A stretch of DNA of 64,000 nucleotides from Bdellovibrionota bacterium. Lineage in GTDB: Bacteria > Bdellovibrionota_C > UBA2361 > OMII01. The position numbers and the translations under genes were made by a program. Of the stretch, positions 10,641 to 26,168 are shown one piece after another (positions within the stretch are counted from its first letter, which is position 1; each line of letters begins with the position of its first letter). The stretch spans positions 28,094 through 92,093 of the forward strand of contig JBILFA010000001.1 in assembly GCA_044351795.1 (NCBI GenBank), written 5' to 3'. The notes under the pieces were generated by a model, which saw only the letters and a list, made by a program, of their open reading frames with translations, was not told the origin of the DNA and did not search any database.

Positions 10641-10965
10641 CGATATCATGGTAAGCATATTCCATTGATTGCGCGATACCAAGTTTATAGATTGCTCTCG
10701 CATCAATGCTCGTCGGAAAAATCAGCTTGAAACACAGGATTTCCGCTTCATCAGCTACGCTCACGGGGCGAAGTATTCGCGAGGGGATGCGACCTGGCGG
10801 CGACAGACCGCCCCTAGAGTCCCCGACTCCACCTAAACAGCTTTTACCTTCAAATGCCAACCTCTGATTAATTGCGAAGTTGGAAGGTAACTCGCAGATT
10901 ACCCACGAGGCGTTACGGAATCTAAAAGACTGAAAGGCCCTATTCCCTGAAGTTCCTGCTTTATC

Positions 10966-11300
10966 GGGAGCTTTTCGCTTGGGTTTGCTGATGGATCTAT
11001 CGGGACGATTCACTACTTTGCGAACGGGAGTCGTAAGGTGCCTAAGGAGCGCTTTGAGGTGTTCTCCGACGGGCGTACTGCGGTGATTGAGAATTTTCGG
11101 GGTGTGCGGAGTTTTGGGTTTGCGGGATTAAAGAGCAAGCGCTTGTGGTCACAGCAGAAGGGGCATGCGGAGTGTGTGGGGAGGATGTTGTGATCCCTTC
11201 TTGGGAGGAGATCCGGAATGTTACGCGGGCTACTGTGTTGGCTCGGGAGGCTGTGCGGAGTGGGGTTGCGTTTCGGGTGTAGGAAGGCGGCTGTGTCGGT
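10966..11300 (+). repeat. repeat copy A1: 3'-terminal fragment of a Gfo/Idh/MocA-type oxidoreductase gene, with an internal 25-nt deletion, plus trailing hairpin
   Basis: Encodes FSLGFADGSIGTIHYFANGSRKVPKERFEVFSDGRTAVIENFRGVRSFG...GVAFRV*; near-identical to copies at 18480–18840 and 23045–23216. Lacks 'atgcgtttctgcgggcggtgcgtgg' relative to other copies. Confidence 0.8.
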
Positions 11301-11412
11301 CGCCGGGCGTTTGCAGCATCGACATACGTATGTTTTGGAACGATGTGGTTGTTCGCGAAGATGGTGCAGGTCGTAGCTCGAGTGCCCGGCGACCGGGGGA
11401 GGACGAAGGTCC

Positions 11413-12570: not shown

Positions 12571-12684
12571 CTTTGCCTATAGCTCCGAGCCTTTAACGAC
12601 GGAGTCGGATGCCCGTTTTATTATCGCCAGACTTTAATATAGGAGGGTTTTCTATCCTTAAGCAAGGCAGGCTTTACTAAGCGA

Positions 12685-13135
12685 GGCGCTTTGAGGTGTA
12701 TTCCGACGGGCGTACTGCGGTGATTGAGAATTTTCGGGGTGTGCGGAGTTTTGGCTTCAAAGGATTGAAGAGCAAGCACTTGTGGTCGCAGCAGAAGGGG
12801 CATGCGGAGTGTGTGGATGCGTTTCTGCGGGCGGTGCGTGGGGAGGATGTTGTGATCCCTTCTTGGGAGGAGATCCGGAATGTTACGCGGGCTACTGTGT
12901 TGGCTCGGGAGGCTGTGCGGAGTGGGGTTTCGTTTCGGGTTGAATAGGGTTTTGAGGGTTCCGGCTTAAGGCGACCGACACGGTCGCCCTCCCAATGTGA
13001 TTCGGGATTGGTTGGGGGCTGGCGCGATCGGCGAGACCCGGTTCCGGCTTGAGGCGACCGGGACGGTCGCGGTCCATGCGGATTCGGGGATGGTTGAGGT
13101 CTCTGGCGCGGACGGCGGCACACCGTCCCTCCTAA
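12685..13135 (+). repeat. repeat copy S1: oxidoreductase 3'-fragment (…GVSFRVE*) plus hairpin module H1/H1'/H2
   Basis: Protein fragment EVYSDGRTAVIENFRGVRSFGFKGLKSKHLWSQQKGHAECVDAFLRAVRGEDVVIPSWEEIRNVTRATVLAREAVRSGVSFRVE. Followed by ggcgaccgacacggtcgcc (12970–12988), ggcgaccgggacggtcgc (13053–13070) and gcgcggacggcggcacaccgtcc (about 13107–13128). Confidence 0.85.
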
Positions 13136-13229: not shown

Positions 13230-14147
13230 TCACAGTGAGAGGACCTTCTTCAGGTTCTCGAGCTGCCGCGCGTGCTTGCCGGGTTCCATCCTTGCGATAT
13301 TTTGAAGTTTCCACTGAATTCCAGGGAGCTGATCAATACCTGTAATGGGAATCAGATCCCATTGAGGTGCTCCAGCTTTGACGGAAACAAGAAACCTGCG
13401 CTCGTTGTCGCTCAAGTCAACTCTCAGCTTTTGAACAACCTCTGCTCGGGTGGCTTCGAGGCTTTCGTACGACACCGAGATTCGACTCATACCGACGAAC
13501 TCGCTCTGGAATATGGTGCGCATATCCAGATAGCTCGGATCGAGTAATTCGTGCATCGGCCTGCTGTGGCTTGCCAAATACAGTACGAATGCCTGCCGTA
13601 TCTGGGTTGTTATACCTTCATTTTCGAGAAGGAGCTTTGCATCGAAGAGATCTCTTGGATGTTGCCTATCGAGAACTGCACACAGTTTCCCGCCGAAGAC
13701 ATCTCCGAAGGACAGTGTGGTAACTTCCGCATATGCTGAAAATCGGGTTTGAGCTGATTCACAAAGCTCTCGTATCTCACACGGAAAAACACTTCCACGC
13801 AGTACGAAATTCGGCTCGATTTTGATGACCGCACCATTGGCCGAGAGAACGAGGCTTCCTATCGTTTTATCGAGTGGCCCTCATGCTTTTTGAACTTTAC
13901 TGTAAGGTACCGCTGCGCATATTCGGTCGGCGAGAGAAGAGAGCGCACGGCTGATACCCTCGATTGTACGCTCGCGACTCTCCAATGGAAGATACGTTAC
14001 ATCGATATCCACAGAGAGACGCGGCATTTCTCGCATGAAGAGGTTTATTGCGGTGCCGCCTTTGAGGGCAAAAACCTTCTGCTCAGCTACCAATGGCAAC
14101 ACTTGTAGTAGCAGCTCAACTTGACGCGAGTACCGCTCGTTGCTCAT
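13230..14147 (-). pseudogene. AbiEii/AbiGii-family nucleotidyltransferase toxin, disrupted by an in-frame TGA and a probable pair of frameshifts
   Basis: N-terminus KGGTAINLFMREMPRLSVDIDVTY (NTase GS…DxD motif). In-frame TGA at 13881–13883 followed by protein-like continuation GPLDKTIGSLVLSANGAVIKIEPNFVLRG. Conserved …FGDVFGGKL / AVLDRQHPRDLFDAKLLL segments lie in two frames around the A5 run at 13736–13740 and the site at about 13680. Confidence 0.6.
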
Positions 14148-14920
14148 CGGGATCCCTCATCAAAAAGGTCCGCTGGCAGTGTGAGGCGATATTTAGGGTG
14201 GAGTTTTCCGCTTTTCACTAATGTTCTATCGCCGCTGCCAAGGTCGATCTTGTCCAGATTCAATTTCTTTACCCACGGGAGTTTTAGCTCCTCGGCTAGG
14301 AGGAGAAAGAGGCGCTTTACCTTGATCGATGAGCAGCTTTCGAGAAGCTGCTGGACAAGCTTCGGACGTAGCGTCAGCAGTCCCGTCATGAGAAGGCGTG
14401 CTTCCGATAGGCTCTGATTCTTTGGCGCTGCGTGGAGCGTCTCCAGCATCGCACGTTCCCGTGAGGATACTTGGATTGAAAAGCTGCCGACGGTTTGTGA
14501 GGAGAGGCCAATGTCGTGAGGGAGTAGGTTCGTCGTCGCAAGCGTTATCGGGACACCCCAGTCGTGACGAGAGAACCAGCTGGGCAGGCGCGTTCCGGGA
14601 TCGGCGAAAAGTGCTACGTCCTCGCTGTCGAACTTGATAAAATGCGCAGCACCGTGATACGCCAAAGCGCTCTTACCCCCGAGATGAACAGGAAGCCTCG
14701 ATTGCTGCTGAAGGGCGAACAGACCGCCGCGCCAGTCAACCACATCACCAGCCTTTGCGAATGCTCCCCGACCGATGCCCACGAGCCACCCAGAGGTCCG
14801 ATAGTGATGAAGCAATACGTCGCTATAGCCGCGTTTCTTCAGAGTGGCGCTGGTAAAGACTGTCCCGCTGGGCCAGCTTAGTAAGAGCTGCTGTATTTTG
14901 CTTCGTTTTTCTGAAACCAT
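14144..14920 (-). CDS. AbiEi-family antitoxin (type IV TA), wHTH N-terminus
   Basis: 258 aa; 4-nt overlap with the abiEii start (ATGA); N-terminal region typical of AbiEi transcriptional-regulator antitoxins. Upstream AT-rich promoter carries a perfect palindrome. Confidence 0.6.
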   Translation of the reverse strand: MVSEKRSKIQQLLLSWPSGTVFTSATLKKRGYSDVLLHHYRTSGWLVGIGRGAFAKAGDVVDWRGGLFALQQQSRLPVHLGGKSALAYHGAAHFIKFDSEDVALFADPGTRLPSWFSRHDWGVPITLATTNLLPHDIGLSSQTVGSFSIQVSSRERAMLETLHAAPKNQSLSEARLLMTGLLTLRPKLVQQLLESCSSIKVKRLFLLLAEELKLPWVKKLNLDKIDLGSGDRTLVKSGKLHPKYRLTLPADLFDEGSR

Positions 14921-14994: not shown

Positions 14995-15189
14995 TATGTA
15001 TACATCTACTGCAACTGCCACTAATACTAAGCTAATCTAAGTAGTTACAATATATATGGCGATCGCTTATAGCTTTTCGAGCTAGGAATGCTAGGCGGGC
15101 TCATGTGCCGGGGCGCTACGAGTCTAACTACGAGAAGAAGGGGCTCGATTATCCGATCGGTTTCGTGCGCTGGACGGAGCAGCGCAATT

Positions 15190-15600
15190 TCGAAGCTGTG
15201 CTTTTGAGATGCATTCCGACGGGCGCACTGCGGTGATTGAGAATTTTCGGGGTGTGCGGAGTTTTGGGTTCAAAGAATTGAAGAGCAAGCGCTTGTGGTC
15301 GCAGCAGAAGGGGCATGCGGAGTGTGTGGAGGCGTTTCTGCGGGCGGTGCGTGGGGAGGATGTTGTTATTCCTTCGTGGGAGGAGATCCGGAATGTTACG
15401 CGGGCTACTGTGCTTGCTCGGGAGGCTTTGCGGAGTGGGGTTTCGTTTCGGGTTGAATAGGGTTTTGGGGGTTCCGGCCGAAGGCGACCGGGACGGTCGC
15501 GGTCCATGGGGTCGGATTCCGTCATAGCTGATGTCGAGGATCCAGGCGAACGGCGACCGACACGGTCGCCCTCCCAATGTGATTCGGGATTGGTTGGGGC
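15190..15600 (+). repeat. repeat copy S2: oxidoreductase 3'-fragment (…GVSFRVE*) plus hairpins H1' (15483–15500) and H1 (15552–15570)
   Basis: Near-identical to S1/S3/S4. Hairpin order H1'-H1 is reversed relative to S1. Confidence 0.85.
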
Positions 15601-15685: not shown

Positions 15686-16852
15686 ATGATCGACAGAGTA
15701 GTTAAGATACCGAAGAAAGGGCACTTTTTTCTCTTCGGCCCGCGCCAAACTGGGAAGAGTTCACTCGTAAGGGTAGCTTTTGAAGCACATGAGACACTCT
15801 CTATTAATTTGCTGCTCAGTCAGGAATATCGGCGACTGAAGCTAGACCCCGGGCTGATCGCGAGCGATGTTGGCGGCCGTGGGCCTGAGGTGCGTTACGT
15901 CGTCATCGACGAAGTACAGCGGGTTCCCGAGCTGCTCGATGAGATACACCACCTGATCGAATCGCCGAATGCACCTTACTTTGTGTTGACGGGCTCCAGC
16001 GCCAGAAAGCTCAAGCGTGCGAAGGCAAACCTCTTGGGTGGAAGAGCGAGCACTATCGAACTCTTCCCTCTAACCTATAAAGAACTCGGGGATCGTTTCT
16101 TCCTTGATCGAGCACTAGCATGGGGAACTCTTCCAAAACTGTACCTCGAGAACGACGAAGAGGAGCGCGCTACCTTTCTGCGCTCGTACGTCGACAACTA
16201 TCTCAAGGAGGAGATTCAAGCCGAAGCTGCGGTGCGAAACCTCTCGACGTTCCTGCGCTTCCTACCGCTTGCTGCCGAGTCAAATGGACAGGAGCTGAAC
16301 TTCTCGAAGATCGCGCGCGTGTGTCTGTCGAACCACAACACGATTAAATCTTACTATCAGATCCTGGAAGATACTCTCATCGGAAGATTTCTACTTCCTC
16401 TAGCAGGCTCGACACGACAACAGCTGTCGAAGAGACCAAAGTTTTATCTTTTCGATACGGGGATCATTCGAGCAATTCTAGGGCGCGAGCGTGCCCAACT
16501 ACACCCAGGCACGTACGAGTTTGGCGCACTCTTCGAGTCCTGGATCATCAACGAGGTGTGGCGGATAAATAGCTACTACAAAAAGAACCTACAGACATTT
16601 TTTTATCGTACCGACGCCGGTGCCGAGGTCGATCTGATCATCATCGATCCCCACCGCGCGAGGTACGCGATAGAGATCAAGAGCGCGAGCGACGTCGCAC
16701 CCGCGGATCTTGGAGCGGGCTTTGAGTCCTTAAGCGCTCACGGAGAGCTAGCGAAGCGTATCTGCGTAACAACGGGACCACGACCTTATTCGTCACAGGG
16801 AGTCGATTTTATGCCGTGGCGCGATTTTTTCGAGTGGCTCGTAGCCGTGTGA
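15686..16852 (+). CDS. AAA+ ATPase with C-terminal DUF4143-like domain
   Basis: Walker A GPRQTGKSSL, Walker B VVIDEVQ; architecture typical of the widespread ATP-binding protein (DUF4143) family. Confidence 0.75.
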   Translation: MIDRVVKIPKKGHFFLFGPRQTGKSSLVRVAFEAHETLSINLLLSQEYRRLKLDPGLIASDVGGRGPEVRYVVIDEVQRVPELLDEIHHLIESPNAPYFVLTGSSARKLKRAKANLLGGRASTIELFPLTYKELGDRFFLDRALAWGTLPKLYLENDEEERATFLRSYVDNYLKEEIQAEAAVRNLSTFLRFLPLAAESNGQELNFSKIARVCLSNHNTIKSYYQILEDTLIGRFLLPLAGSTRQQLSKRPKFYLFDTGIIRAILGRERAQLHPGTYEFGALFESWIINEVWRINSYYKKNLQTFFYRTDAGAEVDLIIIDPHRARYAIEIKSASDVAPADLGAGFESLSAHGELAKRICVTTGPRPYSSQGVDFMPWRDFFEWLVAV

Positions 16853-16904: not shown

Positions 16905-17085
16905 AGAACGTGTCGGGTGGGGGCGTTTTGGGGTGGCGGTTATCGTGGGGTCGGACGTGTGGCGACCGGGACGGTCGCGGTCCGTGGGGATGTAATTCCG
17001 TAATGGCTGATGTCGATGATGCACGCGAACGGCGACCGACACGGTCGCCCCTCCCAATGTTACATGTATCTGGAATGGTTATTAC
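16905..17085 (+). repeat. hairpin-only repeat unit (no coding fragment): H1' 16961–16978 and H1 17031–17049
   Basis: …gtggcgaccgggacggtcgcggtccgtgggg…gaacggcgaccgacacggtcgcccctcccaatg; same module as downstream of the S-copies. Confidence 0.75.
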
Positions 17086-17141
17086 GTTGCCATTCTAGGC
17101 ATTTAATAGTGCTATACATTATCATTAACTTCTCCTAGAAT

Positions 17142-17651
17142 GTGTTTATGGACATTATCCGAGCGATTGTAACGCAAGTCGACGAAGAGCTTTCTCGCCT
17201 CACTGACGCGCGTCGCTCAGAGGATCTGCCAGGGCTCAAGCCGCTTGAAATCAAAGTTTTAGGGCAGATGTCCTTGCTAATGGATCCGGTCGGGCAATCG
17301 CTTAATCCTGCGGCGACTCGAGATATCGACGCTCTGTTGATGGGGGATCTCCTAGCGATAAATATATTCAGAGCCGTAATAAAATCGCACAGCCTTGTGT
17401 TTGACGAGCTCAGTAAAGAAATTTGGCTACCCGAGACTGCTGTGTTTATCCCGTACCATTCATCTGCGCACCTGATTGTTTCCTATGTGGATTCGATCTC
17501 GGCGTTAACGAGCAAAGCGATAAAGGCGAAAGAGAAGAATCGATATCTGATACGAAGAGGGCTAGAGGTTTTTGGAAAGCCACTCGAGGAAGCTATCGTT
17601 CGGTACGGCGGAGATATCAACTACTTCGTAGTCGGCAAGCTGGGGCTGTAA
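17142..17651 (+). CDS. hypothetical protein (possible minimal nucleotidyltransferase-like; uncertain)
   Basis: 169 aa. Weak GQMS…(17 aa)…RDIDAL resembles an NTase Gly-Ser…DxD pattern but is unconvincing. First gene of a 2-gene operon. Confidence 0.4.
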   Translation: MFMDIIRAIVTQVDEELSRLTDARRSEDLPGLKPLEIKVLGQMSLLMDPVGQSLNPAATRDIDALLMGDLLAINIFRAVIKSHSLVFDELSKEIWLPETAVFIPYHSSAHLIVSYVDSISALTSKAIKAKEKNRYLIRRGLEVFGKPLEEAIVRYGGDINYFVVGKLGL

Positions 17652-17652
17652 T

Positions 17653-18159
17653 ATGGCCAAACGAGCACCAAAGATCTCACAGAGTCTGGAGCGCAGAGTA
17701 TTTGGCTTTTTTGTTGCCAAAGGGCTTCTTATCGCACCTCACATAGCGCCGAAGAGCTCTGTGAAGCTGCGAATCGCCGATGTTGTGAATGTTGGGCTTC
17801 ATGTTGAGCCCCGAATTATCGAGGTGCTGCCGGCAGCGCTGCTCCACTTTCCGCGCTCTTTCATCGGATATGAGGATATGCCGGAAAAGTTGAGAGAGGC
17901 GCTCGACTGTATTCGCTCTGGACGGGAGTCAGGGCCCTCTCTCGCAGGTATTCCGTACAAAGCGATACTTCGCTGGGCAAACGAACCTCTGCCTGATAAG
18001 CGAACACGGCCCGAGAGAGACCGCCGTATAACAAAGGCCTTTAGGCTGAAGCGGGCTGCTCTCGAGAAGCTGAAAACTGATGCCTCTTCGGCAGGATTAA
18101 CGGAGACTCGGTACCTGGAGGAGCTTCTACTCGGCGGGGAATTTCAGGGCGAGAATTAA
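17653..18159 (+). CDS. hypothetical protein, basic; second gene of coupled pair
   Basis: 168 aa; start ATG 1 nt after the upstream TAA (translational coupling); no recognisable motif. Confidence 0.4.
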   Translation: MAKRAPKISQSLERRVFGFFVAKGLLIAPHIAPKSSVKLRIADVVNVGLHVEPRIIEVLPAALLHFPRSFIGYEDMPEKLREALDCIRSGRESGPSLAGIPYKAILRWANEPLPDKRTRPERDRRITKAFRLKRAALEKLKTDASSAGLTETRYLEELLLGGEFQGEN

Positions 18160-18177: not shown

Positions 18178-18289
18178 GAGGGCAAAAACGTTCTGCTCAG
18201 CTACCAATGACAGCACTTGTAGTAGCAGCTCAACTTGACGCGAGTACCGCTCGTTACTCATCGGGATCCCTTATCAAAAGGTTCGCTGG
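18178..18289 (+). repeat. partial duplicate of the abiEi/abiEii junction (copy of about 14070–14175)
   Basis: ggcaaaaacgttctgctcagctaccaatgacagcacttgtagtagcagctcaacttgacgcgagtaccgctcgtt(a/g)ctcatcgggatccct… matches 14070–14170 with a few mismatches, fused directly to repeat A2. Confidence 0.75.
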
Positions 18290-18870
18290 TGGAGCTGGAT
18301 GGGCCAGTCTCGATGGTAATGACGGTCACTGCTGGGCGGCTTCCGGCGAATAGTTGGATCATGGATGAGGCTGAAGGTGGTGGGCGAGTTATTAGTGAGG
18401 TGTGCCACTTTATCGATCTGATGGTGGCTGTGTCGGGATCTTTGGTTAGTTCGATCTCGGGGTTGGGATTACGGGAGAGTGGACGGGAGTTGCAATCGGC
18501 GAGCTTTTCGCTTGGGTTTTCAGATGGATCTATCGGGACGATTCACTACTTTGCGAATGGAAGTCGCAAGGTGCCTAAGGAGCGCTTTGAGGTGTTCTCG
18601 GATGGGCGTACTGCGGTGATTGAGAATTTTCGGGCTGTGCAGAGTTTTGGGTTCAAGGGCTTAAAGAGCAAGCGCTTGTGGTCGCAGCAGAAGGGGCATG
18701 CGGTGTGTATGGATGCGTTTCTGCGGGCGGTGCGGGGGGAGGATGTTGTTATTCCTTCGTGGGAGGAGATCCGGAATGTTACGCGGGCTACTGTGCTTGC
18801 TCGGGAGGCTTTGCGGAGTGGGGTGGCGTTTCGGGTGTAGGAAGGCGGCTGTATCGGTCGCCGTTCGTTC
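18290..18870 (+). repeat. repeat copy A2 (longest): about 180-aa C-terminal portion of the Gfo/Idh/MocA-type oxidoreductase (…GVAFRV*) plus trailing hairpin
   Basis: VELDGPVSMVMTVTAGRLP…DEAEGGGRVISEVCHFIDLM…FSLGFSDGSIGTIHYFANGSRKVPKERFEVFSDGRTAVIENF…EEIRNVTRATVLAREALRSGVAFRV*; followed by gaaggcggctgtatcggtcgcc. Confidence 0.8.
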
Positions 18871-18902
18871 GACCCCACCCCTGCGCCATCTTCGCAGTTG
18901 CA

Positions 18903-18950
18903 GTCGGCTAGCTTTTCGCTTGGGTTTGCTGATGGATCTATCGAGGCTCT
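18903..18950 (+). repeat. mini-fragment of the same oxidoreductase repeat (…LQSASFSLGFADGSI…)
   Basis: agttgcagtcggctagcttttcgcttgggtttgctgatggatctatcga matches 18507–18552 and 10966–11000. Confidence 0.6.
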
Positions 18951-19016
18951 TCCCCCTGCCGGATCACCGAGGAATTGCATTGACGCTGACGCCGTCCGGC
19001 TATACCATGGATAACT

Positions 19017-20231
19017 ATGGATTGGCCAAGTATATGGATACAAAGAGATTTTGAAGGTCTCTTAGAGTCTGCCTCGTCTCTGGGGCCCTTCTCGGTGCTG
19101 CTCCTACTTGGCCCGAGACAGGTAGGGAAAAGCTCGCTTCTCAACCGGTGCACGCCACTCGGCACCCAGAAAGTGAATCTCGATGATTTGGACGTCCGCA
19201 CTCGAGCGAATCAAGATCCTGCGTTGTTCGGCCGGGAGCTGGAGGTTCCGCTCCTCATCGATGAAATACAGTATGCGCCTGCTCTGTTGAGTCAGGTCAA
19301 AATACTTGCTGACCGCTTCCCGCGAGAGCTCAAGATCTTTCTCACTGGCTCGCAGAGTTTCGAGGTGATGCCTGGTGTCCGCGAAAGCCTCGCGGGTCGG
19401 GTTGCGATTCTCAATCTTTTCGGACTCTCGCTATCCGAGAAGGGGCTATCTGACGAGACTTCGCCCATCGAGTTTTTCAAGGAGTTTTTCATCGGAACAT
19501 TTCCAGCACTCCGTACCAGTGAGAATCCTGTCTGGACGCGCTACATGAGCAGTTACGTGCAGACCTACGTTCAAAGAGATGTCGGTGAACTGCTGGGTAT
19601 CCAAAAGCGCAGAGAGTTCGAACTCTTCTTGAAAGCGTGCGCACTGCGGACTGGCCAGCTGATTAACTATGAAGAATTGGCGCGGGATTCGTCAGTATCG
19701 GCAGCCACTGCTAAAGAATGGCTATCGATCTTGGAAGACAGCTTCCTTATTCGGCTCGTGCATCCTCATTTCAACAATCGCACCAAACGATTGATAAAGA
19801 CACCGAAGCTTTACTTCCTGGACACTGGCCTGTGTGCCTATCTCGCAGGATGGCGTGATAGTGAGCAGATTCGTGTCGGGCCGTGGGCTGGAGCGTTTTT
19901 TGAGACTGCAGTTTTCGGTGAGCTAGTCAGATACTTTTCGCACCGGGGCCTCGATTATCAGATTCACTTCTGGCGAGACAAGGACGGTAATGAAGTTGAC
20001 TTTCTAGTAGAAACGGGGGGAAGAATCTACCCAATCGAGGTCAAGCTCGGCACCCCTAATCCACGCGATCTTTGCTCTCTCGAGAGACTACAAGTTCCGG
20101 GTATCGAAGACGGTACTGTCGTCTCTATGGCTATGAGGGCAGCTGAAGGTGGGAGGAGAGCGCATGTCAAGGATCGATGGGTAGCGGCTGGTGTCAGAAT
20201 CGATAGAGTATTCGGACGTGCTGCAGTCTGA
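19017..20231 (+). CDS. AAA+ ATPase with DUF4143-like domain (paralogue of 15686–16852)
   Basis: Walker A GPRQVGKSSLL, Walker B LLIDEIQ; same architecture as 15686–16852. Confidence 0.75.
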   Translation: MDWPSIWIQRDFEGLLESASSLGPFSVLLLLGPRQVGKSSLLNRCTPLGTQKVNLDDLDVRTRANQDPALFGRELEVPLLIDEIQYAPALLSQVKILADRFPRELKIFLTGSQSFEVMPGVRESLAGRVAILNLFGLSLSEKGLSDETSPIEFFKEFFIGTFPALRTSENPVWTRYMSSYVQTYVQRDVGELLGIQKRREFELFLKACALRTGQLINYEELARDSSVSAATAKEWLSILEDSFLIRLVHPHFNNRTKRLIKTPKLYFLDTGLCAYLAGWRDSEQIRVGPWAGAFFETAVFGELVRYFSHRGLDYQIHFWRDKDGNEVDFLVETGGRIYPIEVKLGTPNPRDLCSLERLQVPGIEDGTVVSMAMRAAEGGRRAHVKDRWVAAGVRIDRVFGRAAV

Positions 20232-20257
20232 GGCTGTGGTGGCTTCATAGCGTTCTC

Positions 20258-20600
20258 TGACGGGCGCACTGCGGTGATTGAAAATTTTCGGGGTGTGCGG
20301 AGTTTTGGGTTTAGGTGTGTGAAGAGCACACGGCTGTGGTCGCAGCGAAGGGGCATGCGGAGTGTATCGATGCGTTTCTGCCGGCGGTGCGGGGGGAGGA
20401 TGTTGTGATCCTTTCTTGGGAGAAGATCCGGAATGTTACGCGGGCTACTGTGCTTGCTCGGGAGGCTGTGCGGAGTGGGGTTTCGTTTCGGGTTGAGTAG
20501 GGTTTTGGGGGTTCCGGCTTTAGGCGACCGGGACGGTCGCGGTCCATGGGGTTGTGATTCCGTAATAGCTTATGTCGATGATGCAGGCGCACGGCGGGGG
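20258..20600 (+). repeat. repeat copy S3: oxidoreductase 3'-fragment (…GVSFRVE*) plus H1' (20523–20540) and a degenerate second hairpin
   Basis: Starts 27 nt after the ATPase stop. Several substitutions (e.g. …VVAAKGHAECIDAFLPAVRGEDVVILSWEKIRNV…) suggest an older or decaying copy. Confidence 0.8.
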
Positions 20601-20671: not shown

Positions 20672-20965
20672 ATGATCGACTTAAACGACATTCACTCTCT
20701 CTCTGATTTTCAGCGGAACGCTAAGGACCACATCGAGCGCTTGAAGAAAACCGGAAAGCCTGAGGTCTTAACCGTCAACGGGAGGGCAGAAGTAATTGTC
20801 CAAGACGCCCAATCGTACCAAGCGCTCATAGAAACGATCGAGCGTCTCGAAACCCTCGCTGGTCTCCGACTTGGGCTTCAGGAGGTCGAGCAAGGCAAGA
20901 CCGCATCGGCTCAAGATGTCTTTACTCGCATGCGCACTAAGCACAAGATTCCCAAGCGCGCATGA
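20672..20965 (+). CDS. Phd/YefM-family type II antitoxin
   Basis: MIDLNDIHSLSDFQRNAKDHIERLKKTGKPEVLTVNGRAEVIVQDAQSYQALIETIE… matches the Phd/YefM fold pattern. Start probably at the internal ATG 20672 rather than 20612. Stop overlaps the next ORF's ATG (ATGA). Confidence 0.7.
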   Translation: MIDLNDIHSLSDFQRNAKDHIERLKKTGKPEVLTVNGRAEVIVQDAQSYQALIETIERLETLAGLRLGLQEVEQGKTASAQDVFTRMRTKHKIPKRA

Positions 20966-21066
20966 TCTTCAAAGTACAGATTACCCAGCAGGCCGAAGCC
21001 GAATTAAATGAAGCCTACGAATGGATCGCCAACCAGTCGCTAGAACAGGCAGTGGTCTGGTTCAAG
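20962..21066 (+). pseudogene. RelE/ParE-family toxin, N-terminal about 35 aa only; truncated by insertion of repeat copy S4
   Basis: MIFKVQITQQAEAELNEAYEWIANQSLEQAVVWF is a typical ParE N-terminus. Reading frame then runs directly into the repeat (KGLKSKRLWSQQKGH…GVSFRVE*). Confidence 0.65.
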
Positions 21067-21320
21067 GGTTTAAAGAGCAAGCGCTTGTGGTCGCAGCAGA
21101 AGGGGCATGCGGAGTGTATGGATGCGTTTCTGCGGGCTGTGCGGGGGGAGGACGTTGTTATTCCTTCGTGGGAGGAGACCCGGAATGTTACGCGGGCTAC
21201 TGTGTTGGTTCGCGAGGCTGTGCGGAGTGGGGTTTCGTTTCGGGTTGAGTAGGGTTTTGGGGGTTCCGGCCTTAGGCGATCGGGACGGTCGCCGTCCGTA
21301 GGGATGTTATTCCGTAATGG
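21064..21320 (+). repeat. repeat copy S4 (short, begins at …KGLKSKRLWSQQ) plus hairpin ggcgatcgggacggtcgcc (21275–21292)
   Basis: Direct sequence identity to the other S copies; 5' boundary lies inside the parE coding sequence. Confidence 0.8.
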
Positions 21321-21371
21321 CTGAGGTCTATGAGGTACGCGCACGGGAAACGTGAGGATTGCTCTGGCGAT

Positions 21372-22660: not shown

Positions 22661-22981
22661 CTACGTGCGCCTCATTTTGGGCGCACGCTCCTTTGGTTTG
22701 AGCTCAGAGTCTTGCAGCTTTCGCCCCAACACATCATCCCTTCCCAAGTGAGCAAGGTCCTCCTGGAGCCCCAAGGCGGCAAGAACATTGACGTAGGCAC
22801 CCATGGCTACGCTCCCATCGCCACGCTCGATGGAGCGTAGGGTCGGAAGAGATATGTCCGCTCGCTCCGCTACGATTTGGCTTGAGAAGCGCCGTCGTAG
22901 CCTAGCTAGCCTTAGGTTCTCTCCCACTTGGCGTAGAAGGCGCTGTGCCGAGGGTAGAATGACAGGTGTACGCTTGGCCAT
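22661..22981 (-). CDS. hipB: XRE-family HTH regulator (HipB-like antitoxin)
   Basis: Cro/C1-type HTH (LRLARLRRRFSSQIVAERADISLPTLRSIERGD) immediately upstream of hipA, 9-nt spacer. Real start probably MAKRT (22981). Confidence 0.7.
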   Translation of the reverse strand: MAKRTPVILPSAQRLLRQVGENLRLARLRRRFSSQIVAERADISLPTLRSIERGDGSVAMGAYVNVLAALGLQEDLAHLGRDDVLGRKLQDSELKPKERAPKMRRT

Positions 22982-23044
22982 AACAGCAAATATAATTACC
23001 AATAAAATGCTTTATTGCAACTTTATTTTCACCTATTTTAAGAG

Positions 23045-23400
23045 CACGTGCGTGTGGTCGCAGCAAAAGGGGCATGCGGAGTGTATCGATGCGTTTCTGC
23101 GGGCGGTGCGGGGAGAGGATGTTGTGCTCCCTTCGTGGGAGGAGATCCGGAATGTTACGCGGGCTACTGTGTTGGCTCGGGAGGCTGTTCGCAGTGGGGT
23201 TGCGTTTCGGGTGTAGGAAGGCGGCTGTGTCGGTCGCCGTTTGTTGGACCCCACCTCTGAGCCACCTTCGCAATCGACATGATCGTCAAATGCAGGCGTA
23301 TGTCGATGGTGCCAACGCACGGCGACCGACAGGGTCGCCCTCCCCGGGGATTCGGGGAGGGTTGAAGGCTCTGGCGCGGACGGCAGCACGCCGTCCCTCC
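23045..23400 (+). repeat. repeat copy A3: oxidoreductase 3'-fragment (…GVAFRV*) plus H1 (23320–23338), a GGGGAGGG-type stem (23337–23364) and H2 (23373–23396)
   Basis: …WSQQKGHAECIDAFLRAVRGEDVVLPSWEEIRNVTRATVLAREAVRSGVAFRV*; ggcgaccgacagggtcgcc; ccctccccggggattcggggaggg; gcgcggacggcagcacgccgtccc. Confidence 0.8.
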
Positions 23401-24731: not shown

Positions 24732-24837
24732 CACAAATAGTTTTAATAATTTACCCCCATCTCAGGCGACACGGGCGCTGTTACCGGATCGTATGAGGGG
24801 TAAATTGCCATGTCTTGAGATGCCCCATTGCGCCGGC

Positions 24838-24919
24838 TCACTTTTCGCTTGGGTTTGCGGATGGGTCGATTGGGAACATTCACTACTTTGCCAACGGTAG
24901 TCGTAAGGTGCCTAAGGAA
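24838..24919 (+). repeat. 3'-truncated fragment of the oxidoreductase repeat (FSLGFADGSIGNIHYFANGSRKVPKE|), interrupted by the REP/RAYT unit
   Basis: cttttcgcttgggtttgcggatgggtcgattgggaacattcactactttgccaacggtagtcgtaaggtgcctaaggaa then diverges. Confidence 0.65.
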
Positions 24920-25703: not shown

Positions 25704-25771
25704 GCTGCTAATTCGGCATCCAAGGGCAGAAGTTGCGTAAAGTGGGAAAGTCGTGGCTGTCACGACTTTCC
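25697..25771. repeat. REP unit copy 1 (direct repeat containing hairpin GGGAAAGTCGTG-gctg-TCACGACTTTCCC)
   Basis: …gctgctaattcggcatccaagggcagaagttgcgtaaagtgggaaagtcgtggctgtcacgactttccc; duplicated at 26096–26168 with 5 mismatches. Confidence 0.8.
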
Positions 25772-26095: not shown

Positions 26096-26168
26096 TTCCC
26101 GCTGCTAATTCGGCATCCAAAAGCAGAAGTTGCGGAATGTGGGAAAGTCGTGGCTGTCACGACTTTCC
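26096..26168. repeat. REP unit copy 2 (orphan, no adjacent transposase)
   Basis: cgctgctaattcggcatccaaaagcagaagttgcggaatgtgggaaagtcgtggctgtcacgactttcc. Confidence 0.8.

Follow-up and report, generated by a model that had tools for sequence, protein, structure and literature searches.

The two small adjoining open reading frames (ORFs) at positions 17,142 to 18,159 of the DNA analysed here raise the question of what kind of module they form. The DNA (hereafter the window) is a stretch of 64,000 nucleotides (nt) from a Bdellovibrionota bacterium, contig JBILFA010000001.1, positions 28,094 to 92,093 of the forward strand. The initial annotation, made from the sequence alone, had described the pair, here called ORF1 and ORF2, as an uncharacterised, coupled operon and a candidate for a new toxin–antitoxin or phage-defence module. 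We consider it fairly probable that the locus is a self-contained, toxin-first nucleotidyltransferase toxin–antitoxin module carried on a shufflable cassette. Given a toxin–antitoxin function, ORF1 would very probably be the toxin. The features of the pair were as follows.

17106..17122, + strand: candidate palindromic operator ATAGTG-ctata-CATTAT; its centre lies 34 nt before the ORF1 ATG, and it overlaps the -35 box
17113..17141, + strand: sigma-70-like promoter, TATACA (17113-17118), 17-nt spacer, TAGAAT (17136-17141)
17148..17651, + strand: ORF1, 167 amino acids (aa), nucleotidyltransferase-fold protein, candidate toxin
17649..17655, + strand: coupling junction TAA-t-ATG, read directly in the sequence
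17653..18159, + strand: ORF2, 168 aa, candidate antitoxin/autorepressor
17680-17997, + strand: N-terminal helical domain of ORF2 (about aa 10-115), invariant core E52-P53-R54...V58-L59-P60-x-A62
18016-18141, + strand: C-terminal ribbon-helix-helix (RHH) of ORF2 (about aa 122-163), from profile and fold matches

The ORFs had been given as 169 and 168 aa, 1 nt apart. In the window sequence the two genes are co-directional and joined by TAA-t-ATG, so that the junction and ORF2 were retained, while ORF1 was shortened to 167 aa. Its start is most likely ATG 17148, because every ORF1 homologue in the family alignment begins at this position (M-D/K-L-I) and because the -10-like box TAGAAT abuts the GTG at 17142, which was rejected as a start for the same reasons. 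Against a 92%-identical relative, locus L031, the ratio of nonsynonymous to synonymous substitution rates (dN/dS) was 0.135 for ORF1 and 0.091 for ORF2. These low values, together with homologues in metagenomes and metagenome-assembled genomes (MAGs), indicate that both are genuine genes under purifying selection. An exhaustive profile search of 1.84 billion representative proteins yielded about 224 clusters of ORF1 relatives at 50% identity, and for ORF2 at least 610 clusters were obtained by profile search. Homologues of both proteins were annotated as "hypothetical" throughout, and the ORF1 family, which is small, came mostly from Bdellovibrionota and deltaproteobacteria-like MAGs. No RNA family from Rfam was found between 10.5 and 26.5 kb of the window.

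The pairing of the two genes was constant. In each of the 14 non-redundant loci that the ORF1 search returned, the next gene downstream, in the same orientation, was an ORF2 homologue; the order ORF1-then-ORF2 was kept in 11/11 species-representative genomes with an ORF1 relative (Bdellovibrionota, Pseudomonadota, Desulfobacterales and "Deltaproteobacteria" MAGs), and the adjacency was also seen in all metagenomic contigs inspected. Identities of ORF1 and ORF2 to the window proteins fell in parallel, from 73/70% to 32/32%. A nucleotidyltransferase gene stood upstream of ORF2 in 15/15 loci. The junction, scored in 15 loci, took the values +1 nt, +9 (one case) and, where the genes overlap, -4, -8 or -20. 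Since it is tight across loci, the predicted translational coupling is a shared property of the family rather than a peculiarity of the window, and the earlier description of a coupled two-gene module was upheld. Small, adjacent, co-directional, near-overlapping and co-inherited, the genes show the generic layout of a type II toxin–antitoxin operon.

ORF1 has a Pol-beta-superfamily nucleotidyltransferase fold, with an alpha/beta core, a glycine-rich motif, a DxD motif and a third carboxylate. Its top fold match was ANT(2''), followed among other structures by MenT1, MenT4, TglT, JHP933, LnuA and HI0073; the scores were modest and consistent. The motifs are G39-Q40-x-S42, T57-x-D59-x-D61, an acidic residue at position 86, W93-x-P95 and a C-terminal S122-K123-A-x-K126-A-x-E-K130-N. 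In 45 members sharing 19-45% identity with the window protein, G39 and Q40 never varied, L43, T57, D59, D61, W93, P95, S122, K123 and K130 were at least 90% conserved, and residue 86 was acidic. What had been noted as a weak "GS...DxD" pattern is accordingly a family-wide signature. Every residue that does not vary among its 24 closest relatives is retained by the window protein. That the positions for metal and nucleotide binding are conserved speaks for an active, catalytically competent enzyme.

Family assignment of ORF1 was indirect. Membership of DUF6036 (PF19502) was taken as a hidden Markov model score above the gathering cut-off of 23.6 bits. The window ORF1 and 23 close relatives gave no match to this model at E values up to 5, while two of the 45 broader family members did match it. 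One distant member, P0203, scored 31.9 bits (E 1.4e-7) against DUF6036 and was recovered by the ORF1-family profile at E 6.7e-13 in the library of 1.84 billion proteins; its locus has an ORF2-type partner downstream with a 4-nt overlap and a similar promoter and palindrome. Because P0203 matches both models, the ORF1 family is placed, by homology through transitivity, as a divergent branch next to DUF6036. The searchable open-access literature held no mention, function or partner for DUF6036/PF19502. The window ORF1 had no match in Pfam, NCBIfam or PADLOC, and PDB profile searches with three family profiles (A1, A2 and A3) and with P0203 returned only chance or RHH-like matches.

ORF2 (confident AlphaFold2 model, predicted local distance difference test score 88.6) consists of two parts. 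The N-terminal ~105 residues make up a helical domain in whose core K23, E52-P53-R54, V58-L59-P60, A62, W108-A109, D115 and R117 are strongly conserved; profile and fold searches of Pfam and the PDB gave no credible match for it. The C-terminal ~40 residues (...KAFRLKRAALEKLKTDASSAGLTETRYLEELLL) probably form a ribbon-helix-helix, with weak to moderate profile and fold matches: the window protein matched a NikA-like RHH at a sub-threshold E of 0.025, 7/28 relatives matched NikA-like models (best E 2e-5) and 7/28 matched RHH_1, and Foldseek returned CopG, Arc, NikA and TacA1 at probabilities of 0.47-0.77. No helix-turn-helix had been recognised in ORF2, which was borne out, a probable RHH being found instead. 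The statement that neither protein has a motif assignable to a known toxin–antitoxin or defence family holds for the Pfam, NCBIfam and PADLOC searches, apart from the sub-threshold RHH; beyond these searches, ORF1 can be given a nucleotidyltransferase fold near DUF6036 and ORF2 a probable RHH.

In the promoter scan, 9/12 consensus positions were matched, with the -10 box TAGAAT ending 6 nt before the ORF1 ATG. A TAnnnT hexamer ending 6-7 nt before the ATG was present in 10/14 loci, compared with a background of 0.08 per position, and two further loci had CATAAT or CATATT at the -10 position. No Shine-Dalgarno sequence was present ahead of ORF1 in the aligned upstream regions of the homologous loci. 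Since the -10 box lies so close to the start codon and no Shine-Dalgarno sequence precedes it, the ORF1 mRNA is probably leaderless. An inverted repeat centred at -34 was found in the window and in five other loci (L031, L008, L016, L018 and L028); its sequence varied by clade with the symmetry kept (ATAGTG..CACTAT versus TTGTA..TACAA). The half-site tracked the beta-strand of the RHH, ATAGTG occurring with KAFRL and TTGTA/TACAA with K[TSN][FY]R[LF], a covariation that is suggestive. A palindrome over the -35 box is the arrangement expected for autorepression by a dimeric RHH protein, and we infer from it that ORF2 binds this operator.

A perfect 9-nt inverted repeat (17091-17099 / 17134-17142; CATTCTAGG / CCTAGAATG) brackets the operator, its second arm overlapping the -10 box. 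It is absent from L031 and for this reason is probably fortuitous or strain-specific.

Two independent loci retained the promoter, the palindrome and ORF2 and had lost ORF1.

L024:7900-8516 (with L025): orphan ORF2, last ~20 ORF1 codons remaining
L027:6850-7534: orphan ORF2, no ORF1 remnant

At L024/L025 the tail of ORF1 (...EDIIRYGGDPSYFTQQGLEL*) comes after the promoter and palindrome (AATAGTGCTATACACTAT) and is succeeded by TAA-c-ATG and an intact ORF2; at L027 the palindrome and -10 box lie directly ahead of ORF2. The gene just upstream of the L024 locus is HigA-like (PF21716, dnstrm_HI1420). ORF1-only loci numbered 0/14 among those found through ORF1, and ORF2-only loci 2/6 among those found through ORF2. 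Loss of ORF1 only is the pattern expected if ORF1 is harmful without ORF2. Because only ORF1 was lost and ORF2 carries the predicted DNA-binding domain, the orphans suggest that ORF1 is the partner that does harm and that ORF2 protects and regulates.

The pair also moves as a unit. By blastn, 17103-18132 was 91.8% identical over 1030 nt to L031:9956-10985, the sequences flanking the block differing on either side, and the C-terminal tails of ORF2 diverged after ...EELLL. The pair is therefore carried on its own cassette of about 1 kb, independent of the cassettes of the DUF4143 ATPases that flank it in the window. The boundaries were as follows.

17103..18132, + strand: mobile cassette, the block common with L031, from just before the operator to ORF2 codon 160
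16909..17060, + strand: left boundary repeat module, ~150 nt, with repeat families D4 and D6 and two GGCGACCG-nnn-CGGTCGC(C) palindromes (16961-16978, 17031-17049)
18178..18840, + strand: right boundary, a copied AbiEi/AbiEii junction fragment followed by an oxidoreductase 3'-end fragment

The left module matches the L031 sequence just past the stop codon of an oxidoreductase gene. On the right, the AbiEi/AbiEii junction fragment (18178-18284, 107 nt, repeat D8) is 93% identical to 14064-14170, and the GFO_IDH_MocA oxidoreductase 3'-end fragment (~600 nt from about 18308; Pfam GFO_IDH_MocA_C3) is 88% identical to L031:5501-6033 and forms the repeat unit preceding the next cassette. Repeats thus bound the cassette on both sides, as had been proposed, but asymmetrically, with a ~150-nt module on the left and the AbiE and ~600-nt oxidoreductase fragments on the right.

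These features suggest the following mode of action. A leaderless transcript would start at or near A17148 and ORF1 would be translated from it, with ORF2 translated by coupling at TAA-t-ATG. The N-terminal domain of ORF2 would bind or otherwise inactivate ORF1, and its RHH would dimerise on the palindrome over the -35 box and repress the operon. Upon depletion of ORF2, ORF1 would nucleotidylate a cellular macromolecule and growth would be arrested. By analogy with MenT and AbiEii, the likeliest target would be the 3' end of tRNA or of another RNA, with a block of translation (PMC7450476, PMC10435456); tRNA as the specific substrate, should the pair be a toxin–antitoxin system, is a tentative proposal.

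Among known systems, AbiE and MenAT are similar in being small two-gene modules with a Pol-beta-fold nucleotidyltransferase, N-terminal glycine and DxD motifs and a C-terminal lysine (K123 here), and in their mobile-island setting; the window island itself has an AbiE cassette 3 kb from the pair. Motif I of ORF1 is GQxS in place of the canonical hG[GS], and ORF1 is shorter (167 aa) than the MenT/AbiEii toxins (195-300 aa). DUF1814 toxins have four conserved motifs, including a DUF1814-specific motif IV (PMC7450476); ORF1 has motifs that resemble I and II, and by eye, without alignment to DUF1814 proteins, motif IV was not recognised in it, the C-terminal motif of ORF1 being SKAxKAxEKN. In the MenAT and AbiE systems (PMC7450476, PMC10435456, PMC11375011), the antitoxin gene is upstream and encodes an AbiEi/COG5340, COG4861 or MazE-like protein (PMC7450476). 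Here, in contrast, the gene order is reversed, and ORF2 consists of a novel domain with a C-terminal RHH and is none of these. Derivation of the pair from a diverged copy of AbiE was ruled out, hhalign comparisons with the AbiEii fragment and the AbiEi of the island finding no relation; for ORF2 against AbiEi the probability was 0.1%, and ORF2 had no AbiEi Pfam match.

The toxin-first systems hicAB, higBA and mqsRA have coupled genes and an antitoxin that neutralises through its N-terminal domain and has a C-terminal DNA-binding domain (RHH or helix-turn-helix). The present pair resembles them in gene order, tight coupling and the C-terminal position of the DNA-binding domain, and the promoter palindrome fits autoregulation. 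It differs in that their toxins are RNases and the candidate toxin here is a nucleotidyltransferase, and in that the N-terminal domain of ORF2 has no detectable relative. As judged by these searches, the module matches no DUF1814, MNT/HEPN or PADLOC system, the sole family tie being the transitive link to DUF6036.

Both flanking genes are AAA_14/DUF4143 ATPases and match the models of the PADLOC candidate system PDC-S01 (E 1e-64 to 1e-88). DUF4143 ATPases near the pair or an orphan ORF2 were located as follows.

15686-16852: window, first DUF4143 ATPase
19017-20231: window, second DUF4143 ATPase
L006:12664-14004: DUF4143 ATPase
L019:4457-5623: DUF4143 ATPase
L024:5882-7096 and 15748-16516: DUF4143 ATPases
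L031:6245-9180: DUF4143 ATPases

The flanking of the pair by two paralogous AAA+/DUF4143 ATPases was confirmed for the window, where they are distant paralogues (31% identical). Its being embedded between them was not conserved: in L031 both lie upstream, and elsewhere they are absent or vary in distance and orientation. A functional operon with the ATPases was rejected, since cassette order differs in L031. The ATPases are read as fellow island cargo, which does not fully explain their recurrence in five contexts; a loose functional link with the pair is another possible reading.

The contexts of the pair across lineages were unrelated to one another, and about half of them contained toxin–antitoxin or defence genes. 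In the window these neighbours are Fic, AbiE, Phd and HipBA; elsewhere they were an MNT/HEPN pair, a set of TIR, transposase, MazE-PIN and Phd-PIN genes, and a Schlafen-type ATPase. The context with the Schlafen-type ATPase lay near queF and lolA and also included a DUF4143 ATPase; others lay between yajQ and a flagellin gene, or beside TetR and SnoaL genes. The suggested phage-defence role was not supported. ORF1 and ORF2 had no match in PADLOC-DB v2 at E values up to 1, where only the flanking ATPases matched, and none in PHROGs. In the viral collection the only match was L033:1-1040 (IMGVR_UViG_3300025173_000081), a complete pair lying at the very end of a predicted viral contig of 36 kb.

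Other explanations must be set against the toxin–antitoxin module. ORF1 could be a non-toxic small-molecule nucleotidyltransferase, acting on an aminoglycoside, a lincosamide-like compound or another metabolite, and ORF2 a ligand-sensing RHH repressor, the two forming an inducible modification or resistance cassette. This would suit the top fold match of ORF1 to ANT(2'') and the sensor-sized domain of ORF2. We nevertheless regard it as unlikely: no sequence-level relation to the ANT or Lnu families was found (ANT(2'')-Ia and LnuA, both antibiotic nucleotidyltransferases, show 13% identity and no profile match, and lack an overlapping RHH partner gene), and tight gene spacing with strict co-inheritance in unrelated contexts is more typical of toxin–antitoxin pairs. 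The two lineages that dropped the enzyme would also have kept a regulator controlling only itself, and tblastn found no homologue of either protein in 72,556 plasmids, a common setting for resistance cassettes. Less credible again is a reading in which the N-terminal domain of ORF2 (core EPRxxEVLPAA) is a new antitoxin or sensor domain controlling the nucleotidyltransferase catalytically or by a signal, the pair being an abortive-infection or defence module on the DUF6036 branch whose substrate is possibly not tRNA. The domain matches no known fold or family and is as conserved as the enzyme, so that it may be more than a passive binder. Control could run, for example, through triggered self-modification as in MenA/MenT, for which such triggering has been described (PMC11375011), or through sensing of phage infection. 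An exchange of roles as in the type VII HEPN–MNT systems, with ORF1 the antitoxin nucleotidylating ORF2 and the N-terminal domain of ORF2 toxic, is quite improbable. ORF2 stands alone with a promoter in two lineages, which is unlikely for a toxin, and an RHH such as it carries is characteristic of antitoxins; the HEPN motif Rx4-6H is missing, none being conserved in the ORF2 alignment (the spacing between R54 and H65 is 10 residues, and H65 varies among members), and Pfam gave no match to NTP_transf_2, Polbeta or HEPN (no PF01909, PF18765 or HEPN match in either family). A multi-gene defence system made up of the pair and a DUF4143/AAA_14 ATPase would account for the PDC-S01 matches and for the five contexts (window, L031, L006, L019 and L024) in which an ATPase lies no more than ~5 kb from the pair or an orphan ORF2. 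It is the least probable of these explanations: the L006 ATPase is 3.7 kb away on the opposite strand, L019 has an intervening gene, and no ATPase occurs within the recovered stretch of L001, L004, L026, L028 and two other contexts. The placement of the ATPases also differs between the window and L031, each in its own repeat-bounded cassette, and the genomes carry many DUF4143 genes (two each within 16 kb in L020 and L024).

Several observations weigh against a toxin–antitoxin module as well. The orphan asymmetry (2/6 versus 0/14) gave a Fisher p of about 0.08 by hand calculation, and the covariation of operator and beta-strand amounts to essentially two clades. The window ORF1 itself lies below DUF6036 detection, its tie to that family running through the single intermediate P0203, although Pfam matched a second member of the alignment as well. 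No ORF1-family member matched the AbiEii/DUF1814 Pfam model (PF08843; 0/24 members at E up to 5 and 0/45 at E up to 1), and hhalign of the ORF1 family with the N-terminal AbiEii fragment of the window gave a probability of 0.3%. About half of the contexts are without toxin–antitoxin or defence genes, several being inside polysaccharide clusters. Mean column identity was 51% for ORF2 and 57% for ORF1; such near equality is unusual for an antitoxin and could indicate an enzymatic or sensory role for ORF2.

If the toxin–antitoxin module is correct, it would give the first functional assignment for DUF6036 and its unclassified relatives, add to the nucleotidyltransferase toxins a branch beyond DUF1814 (AbiEii/MenT) that is toxin-first and probably expressed from leaderless mRNA, and define a new antitoxin domain. 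To our knowledge, toxin–antitoxin biology has been little studied in Bdellovibrionota and deltaproteobacteria-like lineages. The locus offers a compact test case, with a 1-kb cassette, a predicted 17-bp operator and clear catalytic residues.

The surrounding island spans ~15 kb (10.9-25.8 kb) within a polysaccharide-biosynthesis region (asparagine synthase, GDSL lipase, glycosyltransferase). Its cargo is, in order, Fic; AbiEi with a broken AbiEii; a DUF4143 ATPase; the pair; a second DUF4143 ATPase; Phd with a truncated ParE; and HipB with HipA. Between the units lie copies, of unequal length, of the 3' end of an oxidoreductase gene with two domains (ADH/GFO_IDH_MocA), and GGCGACCG-nnn-CGGTCGC(C) palindromes come after each copy. 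The approximate positions of the copies were as follows.

10955-11311: oxidoreductase repeat copy
12605-13130: oxidoreductase repeat copy
15107-15600: oxidoreductase repeat copy
16909-17060: oxidoreductase repeat copy
18308-18960: oxidoreductase repeat copy
20243-20600: oxidoreductase repeat copy
20995-21350: oxidoreductase repeat copy
22962-23400: oxidoreductase repeat copy
24825-24918: oxidoreductase repeat copy

Nine sites carry the palindrome, all of them between 12970 and 23338, and the rest of the 64 kb has none; by chance 0 would be expected. A full-length oxidoreductase gene was found neither within the window island nor beside it. At L031 an intact 718-aa oxidoreductase stands at the left edge of the island, followed by ATPase 1, ATPase 2, the pair and a Y1 transposase. 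Since cassette order differs between the window and L031, the repeats appear to mediate cassette accretion or shuffling.

In the window and L031 the pair is placed after a sugar-type oxidoreductase gene. Two Bdellovibrionota MAG lineages (L001:378-2815 and L006:6764-8994) have it directly behind a DegT/DnrJ/EryC1 aminotransferase gene, in a polysaccharide cluster rich in glycosyltransferases. Insertion seems to favour polysaccharide loci.

At the right end of the window island lies an IS200-like Y1 transposase gene (PF01797; 25026-25763, - strand), and beside it a 68-nt repeat in two copies (25704-25771 and 26101-26168) with a perfect hairpin (GGAAAGTCGTG-gctg-TCACGACTTTCC). At L031 a fragment of the same transposase gene was found between the two ATPases, and a similar hairpin directly 3' of ORF2. 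The transposase and hairpin repeat may represent a REP/RAYT-like element involved in the rearrangements. Several toxin genes of the window island are decayed, their antitoxins being intact. AbiEii (13230-14147, - strand) is split into an 88-aa N-terminal piece matching PF08843 positions 3-67 and a separate 115-aa ORF without a match, and the ParE-like gene after Phd (20962-21252, + strand) retains ~34 codons before it is fused into an oxidoreductase repeat.

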